From a candidate division WOR-3 bacterium (lineage in GTDB: Bacteria > Hydrothermota > Tepidihabitantia > Tepidihabitantales > Tepidihabitantaceae): 64,000 nucleotides of DNA. Below, in pieces: positions 12,481 through 18,772 of this stretch. The number at the start of each line of letters is the position of its first letter. Position 1 is the first letter of the stretch. The position numbers and the translations under genes were made by a program. Under the pieces are notes generated by a model. That model did no database searches. It saw nothing but the letters and a program-made list of their open reading frames with translations, and was not told the origin of the DNA. The DNA lies in assembly GCA_037441285.1 (NCBI GenBank), contig JBBISL010000001.1, positions 13,880 through 77,879 on the forward strand, given 5' to 3'.

Positions 12481-14481
12481 TCACCTCGTTATTATTATCC
12501 GCAGCGGCTGAGCACCGTCAAAGCGGACAAAATATACCCCGGGACTGACCTTATTCCCATTCCGGTCTTTCCCGTTCCAGAGCAACTGGTTGCCTAATAC
12601 CGGTAAGTTGGCAACGAGTTGTCCGCTCAGGTCAAAAATTTTTAGCGCCCCACTCTGTGCTGCATAGTTGGTTGTAAATCTTACTGGCAAGGCGGTAGGG
12701 TTACAGTGGGGTTTAATAACAACCGGCTCGGGTGCTTGATGTTGGGACGTGCTGATGCCAACATTGCTTACCCCTTCTATCGCATCAAGATGAAACTCGC
12801 CCGAGGCGGTGACTTTTATGTAGCGGGCGCTGTCCAAGCCAACAGCACCGATGTCCAACAGACTCTGGTTAGTGTTGGCGGTGCCAATATCGGTCCAGGG
12901 TCCTTGCCAATCATTCGCCCCTTGAACTAACGCCGTACCGCTGCCCGCGGAGCGATAGACAATTAAATCCATACCTTCTTGATTGCGAACCGGTGTATGC
13001 ATATCAAGACAGATGTACTTACCGTTGTCGAGCCGGAACCCTTCACCATCGTGAGGACCGAGCGCCCGAATCGGATAGGTCCGATTTACTGATGGGTTGA
13101 CATAGTTGTTGGAGATATTGCGGAAGGCAAAAAGCGGTGCTGATGGGTCCGGGGTTAACTGGACATCAACCGTTGTCACTGAGTCTCCGGAATCGGGTAC
13201 AACAACATCGATTAAAGTCGTTTCCCGGTATCCGGGCGCGCGAAATGTTAACTGATAGGTTCCGGGAAGATAAAAGCGGTGAAAGTCACCCAGTTCGGGG
13301 TCATTATAACTGAGCCAGTTTGCGGGACTGACCCAGATTTGGCAGGGAACCGGCTCTCCCGTTGTTGCATCGGTGACAGTACCCCTAATTCCCTGACCGG
13401 CGTGATGCATCAAGGCAAGCATTGCTGGCTTGTTCAAATTGAAAGTCGGGTCAATTTCAGAAGCAGGTGGGGTTTTCTCGATGTGCACTTCAATTGACCA
13501 GCCCATCATTCCATAGCCATAGTCAAAATCTTTGGTTGAGCCATTAATTAGATACATACTGTCCGCACCCTGCCCATAGGTGTAGTGGGTGAAGGCGTCG
13601 TAGCGGGCTGAGAGAAATTGAATCAGGGTCAGTTCCGGAATAGTGTTTTGATAAGAGAAGCAATAACTCCAGGGATGGGAGATGAAGGTAGTGCCGGCGT
13701 GATAAGAGACATAGGTTACTGCAGGATTACGCCAGATGTGGGCTAAAGCCGCTCTATTTTCCGGCTCGGAAAATGGGGCGGCGCCCTGACTTACTTCATC
13801 ACCCCACATCCAGCCCCAGTTACGATTTAAGTCAACATTGTTGCCATTGTAACGGCGGCCCGCGATATAGCCGTCGGGATTGTACATTGGTAGAAAGTAA
13901 ATTTCCCGGTCGTTCACCAGTCGGGTAACAAGGGTGTCGGTGCCGTAGTTTTGAACAAGGTATTTTATCAGTTCGAATACAATCGCCCAACCGATTTTCT
14001 CATCGCCATGGATATCTCCTTCGAAATGAACTACCGGCTCATTTTCATCGCTTTGGGGGTTGTCTGAGATTTTCATTATGAGGATTAAATTACCATTATA
14101 ACTCAAACCCAGCGTTTCCAGTTTGCAAATATTGGGGTTATTCTGGGCGATAATTGCCATTGTGTCCCGAAACTCGGTGTAGGTTAAATACCGACCGTCG
14201 CTGCCAGAGGCAAGGAAGTTTTGCTCGTATACCCTGGTAATGTCTCGGGTAAGAATTTCAATTGAATAACCGCTACTCCTTAATTTATTCTGTTCTTCTA
14301 CCGTTGCTTCAGCTACTACACCCTTGTTGTCAATGTAGTTGACAATTACTCCGATTTTTTCTAATGCGCGCATCTCATTGCGACCGGCTCCTACAATCCG
14401 TACAAGGTCTCTGGACTTGTCAATATGGGCACTCGCCATGGTAAGGGTTGTAAAGATAAAAAAAACAATCCTTGGTTTCAT
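12481..14481 (-). CDS. Secreted M14 zinc carboxypeptidase with C-terminal FlgD-Ig/T9SS-like domain
   Basis: HGDE, NPDG...RYNGNNVDLNRNW, FSEPE and YH motifs. C-terminal LWNGKDRNGNKVSPGVYFVR. Start chosen at ATG 14481 (AAGGAG RBS, signal peptide follows). Confidence 0.9.
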   Translation of the reverse strand: MKPRIVFFIFTTLTMASAHIDKSRDLVRIVGAGRNEMRALEKIGVIVNYIDNKGVVAEATVEEQNKLRSSGYSIEILTRDITRVYEQNFLASGSDGRYLTYTEFRDTMAIIAQNNPNICKLETLGLSYNGNLILIMKISDNPQSDENEPVVHFEGDIHGDEKIGWAIVFELIKYLVQNYGTDTLVTRLVNDREIYFLPMYNPDGYIAGRRYNGNNVDLNRNWGWMWGDEVSQGAAPFSEPENRAALAHIWRNPAVTYVSYHAGTTFISHPWSYCFSYQNTIPELTLIQFLSARYDAFTHYTYGQGADSMYLINGSTKDFDYGYGMMGWSIEVHIEKTPPASEIDPTFNLNKPAMLALMHHAGQGIRGTVTDATTGEPVPCQIWVSPANWLSYNDPELGDFHRFYLPGTYQLTFRAPGYRETTLIDVVVPDSGDSVTTVDVQLTPDPSAPLFAFRNISNNYVNPSVNRTYPIRALGPHDGEGFRLDNGKYICLDMHTPVRNQEGMDLIVYRSAGSGTALVQGANDWQGPWTDIGTANTNQSLLDIGAVGLDSARYIKVTASGEFHLDAIEGVSNVGISTSQHQAPEPVVIKPHCNPTALPVRFTTNYAAQSGALKIFDLSGQLVANLPVLGNQLLWNGKDRNGNKVSPGVYFVRFDGAQPLRIIITR

Positions 14482-14559
14482 CAATACTCCTTTCAGGACC
14501 ATATTTTAAATGATATTGCGGTTCAAGTAATTGTCAAAATAATTGTTATTCGACATGTC

Positions 14560-14581
14560 AATGTCATATTAATGTCATATT
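14560..14581. promoter_or_regulatory. 11-bp tandem direct repeat AATGTCATATT x2 (Pho-box/OmpR-family-like site)
   Basis: Exact tandem repeat with TGTCA cores 11 bp apart. Further TGTCA at 14532 and 14556. Confidence 0.45.
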
Positions 14582-14621
14582 AGAGTAAGAGTAATGGTTG
14601 TTTTAACCTGTCGCAATTTGT

Positions 14622-14646
14622 TAACATATTGATTTTGTGTTAGTTA
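14622..14646. promoter_or_regulatory. IHF-like site (TAAC-N17-GTTA)
   Basis: The reverse strand contains AATCAATATGTTA, an exact WATCAANNNNTTR match. Confidence 0.55.
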
Positions 14647-14708
14647 TTGTCCTTGACGCACTTTAGTAAGTGCGGTCGCATTAAACAATTTTGTTTCGGT
14701 TGTTGTTC

Positions 14709-14733
14709 TAACTTATTATTTTTTTATATGTTA
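14709..14733. promoter_or_regulatory. Second IHF-like site (TAAC-N17-GTTA) just upstream of the sigma54 promoter
   Basis: TAACTTATTATTTTTTTATATGTTA has the same 25-bp geometry and lies about 20-45 bp upstream of the -24 box. Confidence 0.45.
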
Positions 14734-14750
14734 GAATTTCAGGCTGTTGG

Positions 14751-14766
14751 TGGCACAGATAATGCA
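14751..14766 (+). promoter_or_regulatory. Sigma54 (RpoN) -24/-12 promoter
   Basis: TGGCACAGATAATGCA versus consensus TGGCAC-N5-TTGCW. GG and GC are exactly 10 nt apart. Intergenic, with AT-rich IHF-like sites upstream. Confidence 0.7.
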
Positions 14767-14876
14767 TTTAATGGCTTTCGGTGTTTTTAATAAGAAACGG
14801 GAAGGGGTTAGGTGAAATTGACAGAGTTCTGTTTAATTTTTGTCAATAAGTTTGCTCTTTACAAGCGGGAGTTTTT

Positions 14877-15463
14877 GGGTCCACCGGGCTGCCTCATAAA
14901 TTGAGTACAATTCTGTAAGACGGGTAGCTACGGAGTCGAGAGGAAGCGCATTGTTCTCTCTGCTCTCTGTTCCGTTGCCTTTGAGGCGCACCCGAAATAT
15001 TAGTACTCCATAGTTTACTCGTCTTCAAAATTGGTGGGTTGCGGAAGGAGGGATACCATTATCCCTTTTGGGAAGGAGGGATAATGACCCAAAGATAAGC
15101 GGACCCCGGATGGTAGTTGGTAAAATGAAGGAGCAGAACAAAAAGAAGAGAACCTTTGACCGAACTCGAGACAAGTAAATGCTCCTTAAAGGCCGGAGAA
15201 GTTAAGGTTTAACCAGTAACCTTCGGGGTCCGCCTTAAGATTATCTCCTGGGGCCGGCATCTTAGCCTCCTTCTTGGGATTTTGTAAGCCCACGCCCAAG
15301 TCCTACCATAATCGGCCCCTTTTTCTACGCCCGGTGGGCCCCATTATTTGAAGGAGCTGCGGTACGCCTGAAGGGTGTTCTATACCTTTTTAAATGGGGA
15401 GAGCATGCCGCCTTTTTAAAATATCAGGCACTCTGGAACGCTCACAGGGTAGCCGCGGCTCCT
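14877..15463 (+). ncRNA. Candidate large structured non-coding RNA or giant 5' leader (family unrecognised)
   Basis: Nested helices read by eye: 14877-14889/15329-15341, 14908-14936/15005-15033, 15034-15046/15280-15293, 15071-15079/15266-15274, 15099-15110/15222-15233, 15128-15135/15180-15187, 15352-15363/15452-15463 and 15373-15382/15434-15443. Non-Watson-Crick positions are mostly G-U on the + strand. No long ORF. Confidence 0.65.
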
Positions 15464-15495
15464 GTAAGATTTACCGGGGGAGAAGGAGGAAAACG

Positions 15496-17451
15496 ATGTT
15501 GAGGGTAAAGGGGTGTAGGTTCAAATATTTTACTTTTACTCTTTTGATGCTCATTGCCTTTGGTGGCTCTTGCCTTAAGCCACCAGCATTGCCGCAATGG
15601 GATGTCAGTCTGAAAATACCAGTTTATCAGCGAACGATTCGTTTAGGTGAACTTCTGTCAAACAGTGAAAAGTTCCAGATTCAGCCTGATTCATCTTTTG
15701 TAATCAATCTTACCCATCAATGGGGGCCCGTGGCGGTTGATAACGCTGTTTCTTTGCTTGCGATTGAAGAGAGAGAAAAAATCGGGTTGGCGGATTTCGT
15801 TTTTTTCAATTTAGGCAGCGGTAGAGATGGAATAAGCTGTGAGGAAATTTTTGGCCCGATTCCCGATTCGGGTTTGAAGTTACAGGTTGAGCCGTTTAGC
15901 AATAATTTTCAGAAGCACTGCGTTATAGAGAATATTCAGACTGTTGACATTCTCGAAGGTGTGGTTATTGTGCGACTCGAAAATCGCACACCGCTCAGTT
16001 TTGATTCGATTGATATCAAACTATTGGGGACGGTAGTCCATCTCGGCGGTATTAGAGCCGGAGAGTTCCAGGAAGAGAAGTTAAGATTGGGAGGAGCAAG
16101 GGCGGTTAACCCAATTGATTTCGATGTTGTTGTTCATTCGATGGGGAGTGGTCGGGATACAGTAAGAATTTTCCCTCAGGATAGTCTTGTGATAAACATT
16201 GAACCGGAGTCACTTAAAATTGGAGGCGGCCGGTTAAAAGTTGTTGATGCTCAAGCCGAGAAAAAAGTAGAAATAAGGATGGTCGCCCGCAATCCTTTGA
16301 GAATTGACAGTCTTGTTCTATCACAAGGACAGTGCGTTTTCACGGTGGGTAACCGTTTGCCGGCAGCAATAAATCTAAACTATGAGTTTCGTAAGATTGG
16401 TGTTAGTTCGTCCCGGACAGTTGAGGCCGGAGAAGGGATGACGGCTGAATTCAACCTGGCCGAGGTTGGAATCGACAATTTACGGAAAACGGGTGGAATA
16501 CTCGAACTTCAGACGCGGATAAAGTTCGACTCCCGAGGAGAATTTGTTGATGTGACAAAAGATTGTGCGGTGGACATCGGATATGTAATTCTGGACGCTA
16601 AACCGCGATTTCTTGTCGGGATGTTTCGGGAACCAGTGTATGTTTTTTCCCATGTTGAGACCTTACCCGAATTAGTACCTTTTAATTTGCACGGCGTACG
16701 GTTTTCCACAGCACAGCTGGTGTTGGCAGGAGAAAATGGTGTTGGTTTTCCGATGGATGTCTTTGTTGCTTTAAAGGCGATAAAGAATCAGCAAATAGTG
16801 GCGACCGTTGAAGATGTGATTACCGTAATGCCCGGACAAAGAAACCAACCCGGTACTTTTGAGCGCATGTTTCCGATAACTACGCTACTTAACACCGGAC
16901 CGGATTTTATCACCTGCGAATACAATGTCCGGATGAGAGGTTACGGTCGATTTGAGAGTGGACAGTCTGTTTCCGGGACGGCGGTTTTGAATGTTCCAAT
17001 GCGAGTGGCATTTGTGCCGGATACGGTAATTTTGCCCGATAAAAGGATTGAATTGTCCGATGGAGAACGGCAATCGGTGCAAAACTATCTTGTTGATGGC
17101 CAAGCAGGAATCAGGTTGAAGACGGCACTGCCGTTTGGGATGAATGGGCGGCTGGTGTTAAAACCAGGTTCTTTGAGCGAACCGAATGTTCTTGTTGACT
17201 CCGTTGCAATTCCATTTGTTGTACCGGCCGGGGTGGTTAACAACCAGGGGAGATGTGTTGCCGAGCGGGATACCGCAATCTCAGTTTGTCTTGATAGCAT
17301 GGCGGTTACCGTTTTCCGGAGTTACCCGTTGAGTGCCAGATTGATATTCGAGTTACCGGCAACCGATACAGTGGTTGTTTATACCAATGACCAGATAAAA
17401 CTGGACGCAACTGTGGAAGTCCGAATACGGGTTAATCACAGTCCCAAATAA
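15496..17451 (+). CDS. Large beta-rich putative outer-membrane lipoprotein of unknown function
   Basis: AAGGAGG RBS before ATG 15496 (track start 15394 rejected). Signal peptide ends GGS-C, followed by PQWDVSLKIP. Sequence is beta-strand-rich. Confidence 0.75.
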   Translation: MLRVKGCRFKYFTFTLLMLIAFGGSCLKPPALPQWDVSLKIPVYQRTIRLGELLSNSEKFQIQPDSSFVINLTHQWGPVAVDNAVSLLAIEEREKIGLADFVFFNLGSGRDGISCEEIFGPIPDSGLKLQVEPFSNNFQKHCVIENIQTVDILEGVVIVRLENRTPLSFDSIDIKLLGTVVHLGGIRAGEFQEEKLRLGGARAVNPIDFDVVVHSMGSGRDTVRIFPQDSLVINIEPESLKIGGGRLKVVDAQAEKKVEIRMVARNPLRIDSLVLSQGQCVFTVGNRLPAAINLNYEFRKIGVSSSRTVEAGEGMTAEFNLAEVGIDNLRKTGGILELQTRIKFDSRGEFVDVTKDCAVDIGYVILDAKPRFLVGMFREPVYVFSHVETLPELVPFNLHGVRFSTAQLVLAGENGVGFPMDVFVALKAIKNQQIVATVEDVITVMPGQRNQPGTFERMFPITTLLNTGPDFITCEYNVRMRGYGRFESGQSVSGTAVLNVPMRVAFVPDTVILPDKRIELSDGERQSVQNYLVDGQAGIRLKTALPFGMNGRLVLKPGSLSEPNVLVDSVAIPFVVPAGVVNNQGRCVAERDTAISVCLDSMAVTVFRSYPLSARLIFELPATDTVVVYTNDQIKLDATVEVRIRVNHSPK

Positions 17452-17453
17452 CC

Positions 17454-18653
17454 ATGTTGAATATTCTTTGTTTAACGCTTGGTGTCTTGAATCCCGTTTT
17501 TAGTACAGGAAGTAATGCCCTTTTGATAAATCCGGCAAACCTCGGGTTGACAGAAAACCCGATTTTTTCCTGCGAGATTGTTGATTTGAACGCCGGGTTG
17601 GAAAACAACGCCTTCAACATCGTCCAATATAATCGTTACAGCGGAGCGTTTATTGACGAGACGGCAAAAAAATTACTATTAAGGTCGGTACCCAAAAGCG
17701 GACTCGCAATTAACACGGGATTTAATGGGGCAATGCCCCGGTTCAGTTACCGTAATTTTGCGGTTTCGGTCCAAAGCGATGCCGGTGCCGAAGTGGTAGT
17801 GCCCAAAGACCTGATTGACTTAATTCTAAATGGCAATGAGTTAGACCGGATGTACAGTTCAAATGGTGCGCGGGCAAAGTTGACCGCCCTATTGCGGTCA
17901 GGTATAGGAACGGGCAAACGCTGGGGGAATTTTTTAGTAGGCGCATCTTTTAATTATATCCGAGGTCTGTTCTATAGTCAGCTTCTTAACCATGAGGCAC
18001 GGATTGTTACAACTCGGGAAGGTTTTACGGGCGAAGGCTGTGTTGGTTATTTGAAAGCACAGGGTGGTAATGGCTGGAGCATTGATGTGGGTGGTGCCTA
18101 TCAGAAAGCTCGACTTTACCTTGGGCTGTCGGTATTTGACCTGAGTCCTGGGATAGTGTGGCACGAACAGGTTGAGGAGGGGTACTGGACATTCAGGGTT
18201 GATTCAGTCAATCTTTACGAACTATTTGCGGGCTCAGATAAGATTTACTCTCGGGTAAATCGGGTCAGTAGTAATGAGATTTTAACTTACTTACCGATCA
18301 AATTAAATATGAGCATAGGTTATCAAATCCAACCGGGTGTTAATGCCGGTGTTGTTTTGCATCCGGTTTTGGACTTAGAACCCTTCGGTTTAAGTCGGTT
18401 CACTGCCGAACTCATATCAGAAGTGACAATCAAGAAACTGGTGCCGATTTGTTTAACCGTCGGATATGATAACCGCTTTGGGGTTATTACGGGCATAAAC
18501 ACCGGTTTAAATCTGAGAGGTTGGAGTTTTCAGTTGGGAGTTAAGGAGGTTGGTGGCCTTTTGTTTTTCGGAAAGGGGGCTGAGGTCAGATTGGCAATCG
18601 GTTATGCGGTTTTCCAAAGAGCGGCAGTTCCTAAATCGGTTATTAAAATCTAA
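17454..18653 (+). CDS. Putative outer-membrane beta-barrel protein (DUF5723/TraF-like)
   Basis: Signal peptide, N-terminal NPANLG motif, alternating amphipathic strands (e.g. GWSIDVGGAY). Starts 2 bp after the lipoprotein gene. Confidence 0.7.
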   Translation: MLNILCLTLGVLNPVFSTGSNALLINPANLGLTENPIFSCEIVDLNAGLENNAFNIVQYNRYSGAFIDETAKKLLLRSVPKSGLAINTGFNGAMPRFSYRNFAVSVQSDAGAEVVVPKDLIDLILNGNELDRMYSSNGARAKLTALLRSGIGTGKRWGNFLVGASFNYIRGLFYSQLLNHEARIVTTREGFTGEGCVGYLKAQGGNGWSIDVGGAYQKARLYLGLSVFDLSPGIVWHEQVEEGYWTFRVDSVNLYELFAGSDKIYSRVNRVSSNEILTYLPIKLNMSIGYQIQPGVNAGVVLHPVLDLEPFGLSRFTAELISEVTIKKLVPICLTVGYDNRFGVITGINTGLNLRGWSFQLGVKEVGGLLFFGKGAEVRLAIGYAVFQRAAVPKSVIKI

Positions 18654-18699
18654 TCGATTTCGCTTGACGAAAAAATTACATTGATTATTATACTGATAA

Positions 18700-18772
18700 G
18701 GGGCTGTAGCTCAGTTGGGAGAGCACCTGCTTTGCAAGCAGGGGGTCGCCCGTTCGAATCGGGTCAGCTCCA
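18700..18772 (+). tRNA. tRNA-Ala (TGC), CCA not encoded
   Basis: GGGGCTG/CAGCTCC acceptor stem with G3:U70, D arm GCTCAGTTGGGAGAGC, anticodon arm CCTGC-TTTGCAA-GCAGG, T loop TTCGAAT. Confidence 0.97.

Follow-up and report, generated by a model that had tools for sequence, protein, structure and literature searches.

A large structured RNA behind a sigma-54-type promoter, usually linked to an envelope operon, in candidate division WOR-3 bacteria

Between a divergently transcribed carboxypeptidase gene and an operon for a predicted lipoprotein and an outer-membrane barrel, a 64,000-nucleotide (nt) stretch of a candidate division WOR-3 genome (the whole of which we call the window; contig JBBISL010000001.1 of assembly GCA_037441285.1, G000 among our genomes) carries a large structured non-coding RNA of ~690 nt, preceded by a predicted sigma-54-dependent promoter. 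Its fold is supported by compensatory changes among its relatives, it belongs to no family described in Rfam 15, and its linkage to the envelope operon is usual but dispensable. It is the RNA itself that is the unit under selection, and on balance we consider it probable that this RNA has a function of its own, because some genomes that lack the operon still carry it as a gene standing alone.

The RNA and its fold

The RNA lies in an intergenic gap of 993 bases that separates the divergent M14 carboxypeptidase gene (12481-14502, minus strand) from the ATG at 15496, and whose plus strand (14503-15495) holds no long open reading frame (ORF) besides an upstream extension of the lipoprotein frame. 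By textbook sigma-54 spacing, its 5′ end would fall near 14778. Folded as a single sequence it is more stable than all of 20 shuffled versions (z = -5.4), and its G+C content is 0.476, against 0.294 in the spacer upstream of the promoter box. It is, however, from conservation and covariation among relatives, and not from the single sequence, that we conclude that the RNA goes beyond chance. Among 40 relatives, the 3′ ~230 nt of the spacer retain ~72% nucleotide identity where the lipoprotein retains only 33-34% amino-acid identity; that is, the 3′ part of the RNA is better conserved than the lipoprotein it adjoins.

Loci were collected with an invariant 22-mer, GCATCTTAGCCTCCTTCTTGGG, as seed. 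With at most two mismatches it occurs in 19 of the 272 genomes of the phylum, with no match in the controls; it also gave four loci in genome contigs and 24 loci in metagenome contigs. Removal of copies at least 97% identical left 29 distinct RNA copies, from which two genomes (G138 and G148) and one locus cut at its 3′ end were set aside; the 22-mer matches of G138 and G148, each with two mismatches, were rejected as chance matches, with no hit to the covariance model described below at E ≤ 1 and no correctly placed promoter box. The remaining 26 were aligned over the span that begins with the promoter box and ends with the last conserved helix (alignment A2, an earlier one being A1). A2 shifts the rows of the present genus at the P2 domain, and the G000 coordinates of P2 and H2 were accordingly taken from the sequence and from duplex folding. 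A covariance model of the 3′ 213 positions (R1) was then searched against 132 genomes of the class. It scores 195.9 bits at C1:29124-29342 of G000 (window 15245-15463) and finds exactly one copy in each of 30 genomes: 20 of the 43 members of family f1 without counting G000, both members of f2, all six of f4 and one of four in f3. No copy was found by R1 in family f5 (0/10) or in nine other families (0/66).

RNAalifold folds A2 with 61 pairs, of which 24 show compensatory changes. Once three "pairs" within the promoter had been removed, 58 pairs in nine helices could be counted on the 26 distinct RNAs. These are paired in 96.6% of cells, versus 38.6-53.6% when the partners are slid by one to three columns, and compensatory change affects 24 pairs and 124 cells, versus 6-12 pairs and 14-29 cells in the slid controls; none of 500 shuffles attains any of the observed pairing measures. 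Ten RNAs from outside model building are 85.2% paired (33-51% when slid) and show 20 compensatory pairs, in an alignment that was fitted to the R1 model and hence leans towards it.

The long-range helix H1 joins bases ~450 nt apart and is compensatory in six of its eight A2 pairs, with switches across genera such as UA12/CG10, GC13/AU11 and CG18/UA6. The P2 duplex of G000 has a computed energy of -19.3 kcal/mol, and the homologous helix of A2 is compensatory at 12 of 12 pairs. H2 was misaligned by MAFFT and was therefore checked RNA by RNA: of the 24 RNAs (among 26) for which the duplex was computed, 22 have energies between -15.8 and -30.5 kcal/mol, the means after shuffling being -7.8 to -16.7, and two are weak. 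Outside a GCGGAC core the H2 duplex sequences differ, and one RNA is without the H2 domain. The H3 block is invariant or nearly so in all 26 RNAs, and the helices of the 3′ domain are kept in the ten RNAs outside model building. The 3′ domain also settles the strand, because its G-U pairs (GU13, UG21 and UG9) would be mismatches on the other one; the RNA is read from the plus strand. Such patterns, with 24 compensatory pairs in covarying helices, identify a structured non-coding RNA, in which H1 would close a core whose four sub-domains have invariant loops, the P2, H2 and H3 domains among them, with the H4-H5 domain lying 3′ of H1. A protein-coding reading was considered and dropped: the longest open frames of the copies, 67-143 codons, differ from one another, and no ORF is common to them in strand, frame or position.

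The RNA measures ~690 nt here, ~570-830 nt in f1 and f2, and ~370-390 nt in f4. The short form, which we observe in f4 and in G030 (loci L085-L087, L025 and L023), does without the large P2 and H2 expansions and keeps the UUCUUUGAAAA block, the CCUCC loop and the 3′ domain; in f4 the promoter box stands only ~190-210 nt upstream of that domain.

Searched against Rfam 15, only the tRNA of the window reaches its gathering score. Over 14450-15600 the best match at E ≤ 10 has 19 bits, against a threshold of 55.8, and seven other representatives of the RNA give nothing at E ≤ 0.1 except tRNA. The RNA thus belongs to no family described in Rfam 15, including OLE, GOLLD, ROOL, HEARO, raiA, riboswitches, RNase P, tmRNA, 6S and SRP. 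Literature on DUF5723, on non-coding or structured RNA in WOR-3 and on sigma-54 yielded no description of it, and the main texts of 2026 preprints on RNA discovery with genome language models contain no WOR-3, sigma-54, rpoN, lipoprotein or rimP, while their supplements could list the RNA. We rate it as a previously undescribed class within the large ornate bacterial RNAs, set apart by two unusual traits, namely its sigma-54 promoter and its natural occurrence in linked, stand-alone and mini forms.

The promoter and the linkage to the envelope operon

The -24/-12 box is the sole match to TGGCAYN5WTGCW in the window, where chance alone would give 0.21 matches and at least one turns up in 19 of 100 shuffles; by itself it is weak evidence and not significant. 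Its position is conserved, however, across loci. A GG-N10-GC box stands 716-858 nt upstream of the lipoprotein start at 12 of 20 homologous loci, with variant boxes at two more; measured from the invariant 22-mer, its distance upstream is 395-601 nt at most of 43 loci. In G001 and G002 the spacing within the box is shortened. Further upstream, same-strand GTCGCA or GTCACA sites recur near -150 and -85. Of 35 loci (not de-duplicated), 31 have the two together and none lacks both; the sites occur at stand-alone and f4 loci as well. A box with phased upstream sites is the layout of an activator-dependent sigma-54 promoter, and we predict from these motifs a sigma-54-dependent promoter that is conserved in position. 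For the activator domain PF00158, G000 has nine matches, of which five exceed 170 bits. On the plus strand, simple scans find no terminator-like site in 14300-15729 and no sigma-70-like site in 14651-15878.

In 22 of the 30 RNA-bearing genomes, all of one order (G204 being left out of this check), a homologue of the lipoprotein gene starts directly after the RNA, and the same order is seen at 23 of 24 metagenome loci, the 24th being cut off. Of 20 loci fetched, 18 have the barrel gene next after the lipoprotein gene, and two end within the latter. This linked arrangement spans families f1 to f4. On the other side, the divergent neighbor is rimP-nusA in ~24 loci of f1, f2 and f4, and not in the present genus.

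Seven of the 30 genomes, from four genera (G009, G220, G216, G011, G019, G205 and G007), carry the RNA with no lipoprotein homologue downstream. Their RNAs score 97-167 bits over the full R1 model; a sigma-54 box is found at six of the seven loci and GTCGCA sites are seen at four. The next gene is convergent in five (G009, G011, G019, G205 and G007), and in G220 and G216 a short co-directional ORF and then a TPR gene follow the RNA. Behind the RNA of G011, G019, G205 and G007 come hairpins and then tRNA-Ala; because the same tRNA-Ala follows the barrel gene in the window, as it also does in G003, G001, G002, G018 and G022, the gene pair is missing there from exactly the interval between RNA and tRNA. 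Conversely, in family f5 and in G017 the gene pair stands behind short spacers with neither RNA nor sigma-54 box nor GTCGCA sites, a sigma-70-like promoter being recognizable by eye in two of four such loci, and G018 and G025 possess a second paralogue without the RNA. As a separate observation, at the stand-alone locus of G009 (L076) a degenerate GTGTTGCAAGTTCAAGGGTTGGCAG, 3′ of the RNA, was aligned by MAFFT with the conserved start of the lipoprotein ORF; judging from this resemblance, the stretch may be the leftover of a deleted operon.

The initial annotation had read this part of the window as a possible three-part system of structured RNA, lipoprotein and barrel in one transcription unit, and its description of the locus agrees with ours: a structured RNA upstream of the genes, which we find stable on its own and covarying in 26 relatives; a sigma-54 box, whose position proved to be conserved; no intrinsic terminator between RNA and ribosome-binding site, at least in the simple scan; a 651-residue lipoprotein gene and a barrel gene with an NPANLG motif, 2 bp apart; and an end at the promoter of a tRNA-Ala gene. 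Co-occurrence of these elements across genomes, which it proposed to examine, was borne out in part. RNA, lipoprotein and barrel do stand together in most RNA-bearing genomes, yet the seven stand-alone genomes have the RNA without the genes, and the reverse holds for f5 and G017, so that the idea of an obligate three-part system is not supported.

Table 1. Features of the RNA locus and its surroundings, in window coordinates
Feature	Position	Strand	Remarks
M14 carboxypeptidase, T9SS-type C-terminal domain	12481-14502	-	divergent upstream neighbor
Distal GTCGCA site	14610-14615	+	~-142 from the GG of the box; likely enhancer-binding-protein site
Proximal GTCGCA site	14675-14680	+	~-77 from the box
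Sigma-54 type -24/-12 box TGGCACagataATGCA	14751-14766	+	
Large structured RNA	14778-15462	+	predicted start to last conserved helix, ~685-690 nt; both ends predicted
H1, 5′ strand GGGUCCACCGGGC	14877-14889	+	pairs with 15328-15341, -30.1 kcal/mol
P2 domain	14919-15023	+	stem 14919-14935 with 15006-15023 around conserved UCUCUCUGC block
Purine-rich repeats GGAAGGAGGGAUA	15043-15055, 15071-15083	+	Shine-Dalgarno-like
H2 domain	15099-15233	+	stem GCGGACCCCGGA (15099-15110) with UUCGGGGUCCGC (15222-15233); variable insert inside
H3 domain	15250-15319	+	GGGGCC/GGCCCC stem, 22-mer, CUUGGG/CCCAAG hairpin (15273-15278 with 15295-15300)
Invariant 22-mer GCAUCUUAGCCUCCUUCUUGGG	15257-15278	+	within H3
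H1, 3′ strand CGCCCGGUGGGCCC	15328-15341	+	long-range closing helix
3′ domain	15353-15462	+	H4 15353-15361 with 15453-15462; H4b 15364-15370 with 15445-15450; H5 15403-15409 with 15427-15433
Shine-Dalgarno GGAGAAGGAGG and ATG	15479-15498	+	Shine-Dalgarno 15479-15489, ATG 15496; lipoprotein gene start
Predicted lipoprotein, 651 residues	15496-17451	+	beta-sandwich domains; lipobox-like FGGSC, Cys26
Outer-membrane barrel, 399 residues, DUF5723, FadL/TodX-like	17454-18653	+	2 bases after the lipoprotein ORF
tRNA-Ala(UGC)	18700-18772	+	sigma-70-like TTGACG-16-TATTAT at 18664-18691; downstream boundary of the unit

The envelope proteins and flanking genes

The lipoprotein has a hydrophobic N-terminus and an FGGSC motif, judged by eye, whose cysteine (Cys26) is shared by at least 90% of 20 homologues. 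It has no match in Pfam or NCBIfam, and its relatives are labelled only as hypothetical. Its AlphaFold2 model (mean predicted local distance difference test score, pLDDT, 85.6) is a chain of beta-sandwich domains, for which the best structural match among those listed is 4h3w_A (Z 16.5 over 285 residues at a root-mean-square deviation of 5.9; next Z 7.7), the uncharacterized secreted protein BDI_1231 of Parabacteroides distasonis. Its profile finds nothing better than E 0.13 among PDB sequences, and Foldseek returns just generic beta-sandwich matches with template-modelling (TM) scores of at most 0.17. The likeness to BDI_1231 hints at a wider protein family of the Fibrobacteres-Chlorobi-Bacteroidetes (FCB) group without a Pfam model. 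After the cysteine, a motif CLKPPxLPxWD is conserved, with Pro33 and Trp35 invariant. The nucleotides of the first codons, GTTGAGGGTGAAGGGG (encoding (M)LRVKG, window 15496-15520), are conserved even between genera with proteins only ~35% identical. AGGAG abuts TTG in many genera, so the true start may be the GTG two codons later, or else the conserved GTTGAGGGTGAAGGGG string may belong to an RNA structure.

The initial annotation's outer-membrane barrel is supported by structural comparison. The protein matches PF18990 at E 8e-15 (55.8 bits, cut-off 26.8), carries the motif LINPANLGL with NPANLG at residues 26-31, and is modelled at a pLDDT of 87.3; Foldseek matches the model to TodX, FadL, BamG (9hjm_F, 9hiv_F and 9n2d_B) and PorV (6h3i_F) at TM 0.40-0.54, with a probability of 1.00 and a TM of ~0.5 for TodX and FadL. 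By its Pfam match, its modelled barrel fold and its N-terminal NPA motif it is classed as a DUF5723, FadL-like protein, even though by Pfam, and in this differing from FadL and TodX, it is DUF5723 and not Toluene_X. An identity as PorP/SprF of the type IX secretion system (T9SS) was tried and rejected (PF11751, 15.0 bits against a cut-off of 22.3).

BamG is described as a binding partner of BamH, a surface lipoprotein, and BamG2 and BamH2 are reported to form an operon (PMC12578637). With these the present pair shares the placement of a FadL-like barrel gene beside a lipoprotein gene and the N-terminal NPA motif of the barrel, and by this analogy it is a reasonable guess that lipoprotein and barrel form a complex. 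It differs from them in having a lipoprotein whose first six residues after Cys26 (CLKPPAL) include no acidic one. BamH chains are not among the 50 best structural matches of the lipoprotein, a result that is uninformative either way.

The upstream neighbor, an M14 zinc carboxypeptidase, also has a CarboxypepD_reg domain, and the match of its T9SS-type sorting domain is weak.

Function of the RNA and comparison with known systems

An invariant string of the RNA, CCUCCUUCUU, can pair with the Shine-Dalgarno sequence of the lipoprotein gene over 10 bp (-17.4 kcal/mol) and, alternatively, with either of the internal purine repeats (-16.0 and -16.9 kcal/mol). A choice of CCUCCUUCUU between the GGAAGGAGG repeats and the Shine-Dalgarno sequence would plausibly couple the fold of the RNA to translation of the lipoprotein, and the initial annotation's suggestion that the RNA gates expression of the genes behind it keeps its force to that extent. 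We also considered that CCUCCUUC might form a universal pseudoknot with the internal purine block, and dropped the idea because the block, which is kept in f1, is missing from f2.

A separate element of ~70 nt, nearly identical across genera and seen in relatives only (L090 516-541 in G001, L088 509-534 in G015 and L089 492-517 in G023), has a 12-bp stem (GUCGGGAGCAGG/CCUGCUCCCGAC) and contains in its G-rich loop the same 26 nt, UUGGUGGGUUGGGAAGGAGGGAUACC, as stand at the center of the large RNA (window 15031-15057). It is present once in most f1 genomes, some without the large RNA among them; Rfam gives no match to it, and the G000 assembly no copy. This element may be another small RNA, with a partner in common with the large one.

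The account that we favor, and hold to be probable, gives this large non-coding RNA an independent function: it would act under a sigma-54-controlled condition as a trans-acting regulator, a protein-binding scaffold or a catalyst. A signal would lead an activator bound at the GTCGCA sites to fire the sigma-54 promoter, and the transcript would fold, H1 closing P2, H2 and H3, with the H4-H5 domain 3′ of it. At the present locus the polymerase would then run on, no terminator intervening, into the lipoprotein and barrel genes, which would thus be co-transcribed, and in a secondary role in cis the RNA may mask the ribosome-binding site of the operon. A bolder version, which we regard as possible and put forward tentatively, is that of an ornate RNA machine in which CCUCCUUCUU, as an anti-Shine-Dalgarno mimic, and the Shine-Dalgarno-like repeats bind mRNA starts, the 30S subunit or both and reprogram translation in envelope or nutrient stress, or else that of a ribozyme or of a particle resembling those of GOLLD and ROOL, the operon being a passenger.

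Several observations weigh against a function of its own. The usual site of the RNA, directly before the same gene family, is what is expected of a cis-regulatory leader, and the seven stand-alone copies could be recent leftovers; indeed, the stand-alone g8 and G007 copies score 97-115 bits, versus 135-210 for most linked f1 and f2 copies. Related genomes share ancestry, so the counts given above are not independent samples. That an anti-Shine-Dalgarno-like string can pair with a Shine-Dalgarno sequence follows in part from composition, and conservation of the internal purine block does not extend to f2. As to the promoter, the -12 element of f4 and G030 reads TTGA or TTGT, not TTGC, and rpoN (PF04552, PF04963) was not found in the G000 assembly (96.8% complete, 38 contigs). 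The latter is probably an assembly gap; rpoN (PF04963) was found in all 12 relatives searched, four of them of the same genus. Finally, start, end, processing and read-through of the RNA are all inferred; among 12 sequencing runs listed, none of those containing the locus is an RNA run.

The most serious competitor takes the RNA to be purely a giant cis-acting 5′ leader, riboswitch-like, that exposes or masks the Shine-Dalgarno sequence of the lipoprotein-barrel operon and does nothing else. Its position directly upstream of, and on the same strand as, one gene family in 22 of 30 genomes and 23 of 24 metagenome loci fits such a leader, as do the simple scans, empty of terminator-like and sigma-70-like sites between RNA and ORF, the 10-bp pairing of CCUCCUUCUU with the Shine-Dalgarno sequence in competition with two internal decoys, and, in f4, a Shine-Dalgarno sequence within ~25-40 nt of the last helix. 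Yet the RNA is not always upstream of a gene it could control: seven genomes keep it at full length without the lipoprotein gene, in five of them facing a convergent gene, and the invariant loop is kept at stand-alone loci, where there is no Shine-Dalgarno sequence to mask, whereas the f5 and G017 operons manage without any such leader. A size of 570-830 nt, with a closing helix that spans ~450 nt, moreover far exceeds that of known cis-regulators. We therefore regard a leader without any further function as unlikely, if well worth keeping in mind.

Much less probable is the other proposal of the initial annotation, that the RNA is a physical partner of both envelope proteins in a membrane ribonucleoprotein like that of OLE and OapA. 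The three genes do occur together in most RNA-bearing genomes, and large ornate RNAs with membrane-protein partners exist, OLE being one. However, with its predicted signal peptide and putative lipid-anchor cysteine the lipoprotein, like the barrel in the outer membrane, would reside beyond the inner membrane, and it is because both proteins would work outside the cytoplasm, where the RNA is made, that a partnership of the OLE type becomes improbable; besides, the RNA occurs without the proteins in seven genomes, and the proteins without the RNA in f5, in G017 and as the second paralogues of G018 and G025. That there is no functional RNA at all, and that conservation reflects DNA-level sites, a small protein gene or a decayed mobile element, we consider scarcely credible. 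The promoter-proximal part does hold DNA-level sites (the box and the GTCGCA repeats), and each copy has its open frames of 67-143 codons, but these frames differ in strand, frame and place, and 24 compensatory pairs, some joining partners ~450 nt from each other, together with strand-specific G-U pairs, are as expected of an RNA fold rather than of DNA sites. The pair counts on 26 RNAs and again on ten independent ones contradict this view, and a single copy per genome in conserved synteny, with rimP on one side and tRNA-Ala on the other, is unlike a mobile element.

Large, intricately folded bacterial RNAs are rare (rRNAs, RNase P, group I and II introns, OLE, GOLLD, ROOL and HEARO), and each known class has opened new biochemistry. 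For the RNA described here, which stems from a lineage that is uncultivated and whose RNA has hardly been studied by experiment, a defined regulated promoter offers a handle on when it is made; the versions with operon, without operon and of ~370-390 nt mark out its essential core, and sizes of ~370-830 nt are suited to cryo-electron microscopy. For annotators, the spacer before these lipoprotein genes, ~1 kb here, is not empty.

Among known systems, OLE is comparable in outline, being a large (~600 nt), multi-domain, conserved RNA encoded beside membrane-protein genes, tied to stress adaptation and obscure in its biochemistry. The WOR-3 RNA has no Rfam match at E ≤ 10 and comes from a lineage other than the Bacillota of OLE; it is preceded by a sigma-54 promoter, its neighbors are extracytoplasmic and not inner-membrane proteins, and RNA and proteins also occur apart.

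GOLLD and ROOL are giant ornate RNAs that form RNA-only cages and are often found near tRNA genes. The WOR-3 RNA falls in the same class of 500-800 nt, with long-range helices, many conserved loops and a narrow, patchy distribution, and at four stand-alone loci it lies directly before tRNA-Ala. Unlike GOLLD and ROOL, which it does not match in Rfam, it is not borne by phages or prophages as far as seen, keeps to one copy per genome at a conserved chromosomal place, and has a dedicated sigma-54 promoter with activator sites. With leaders that mask a Shine-Dalgarno sequence, such as riboswitch platforms and RNA thermometers, it shares a same-strand upstream site, a pyrimidine stretch complementary to the Shine-Dalgarno sequence and an internal competitor; it departs from them in size, in architecture and in persisting without a downstream ORF in seven genomes.

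GlmY/GlmZ, Qrr and NrsZ, finally, are sigma-54-dependent small RNAs of ~100-230 nt, built of simple hairpins, that link an envelope or nutrient signal to post-transcriptional control via an enhancer-binding protein. Like them, the WOR-3 RNA would be a non-coding RNA made from a -24/-12 promoter; its length is three to eight times theirs, its fold is closed and multi-domain, and it would usually continue into an mRNA.

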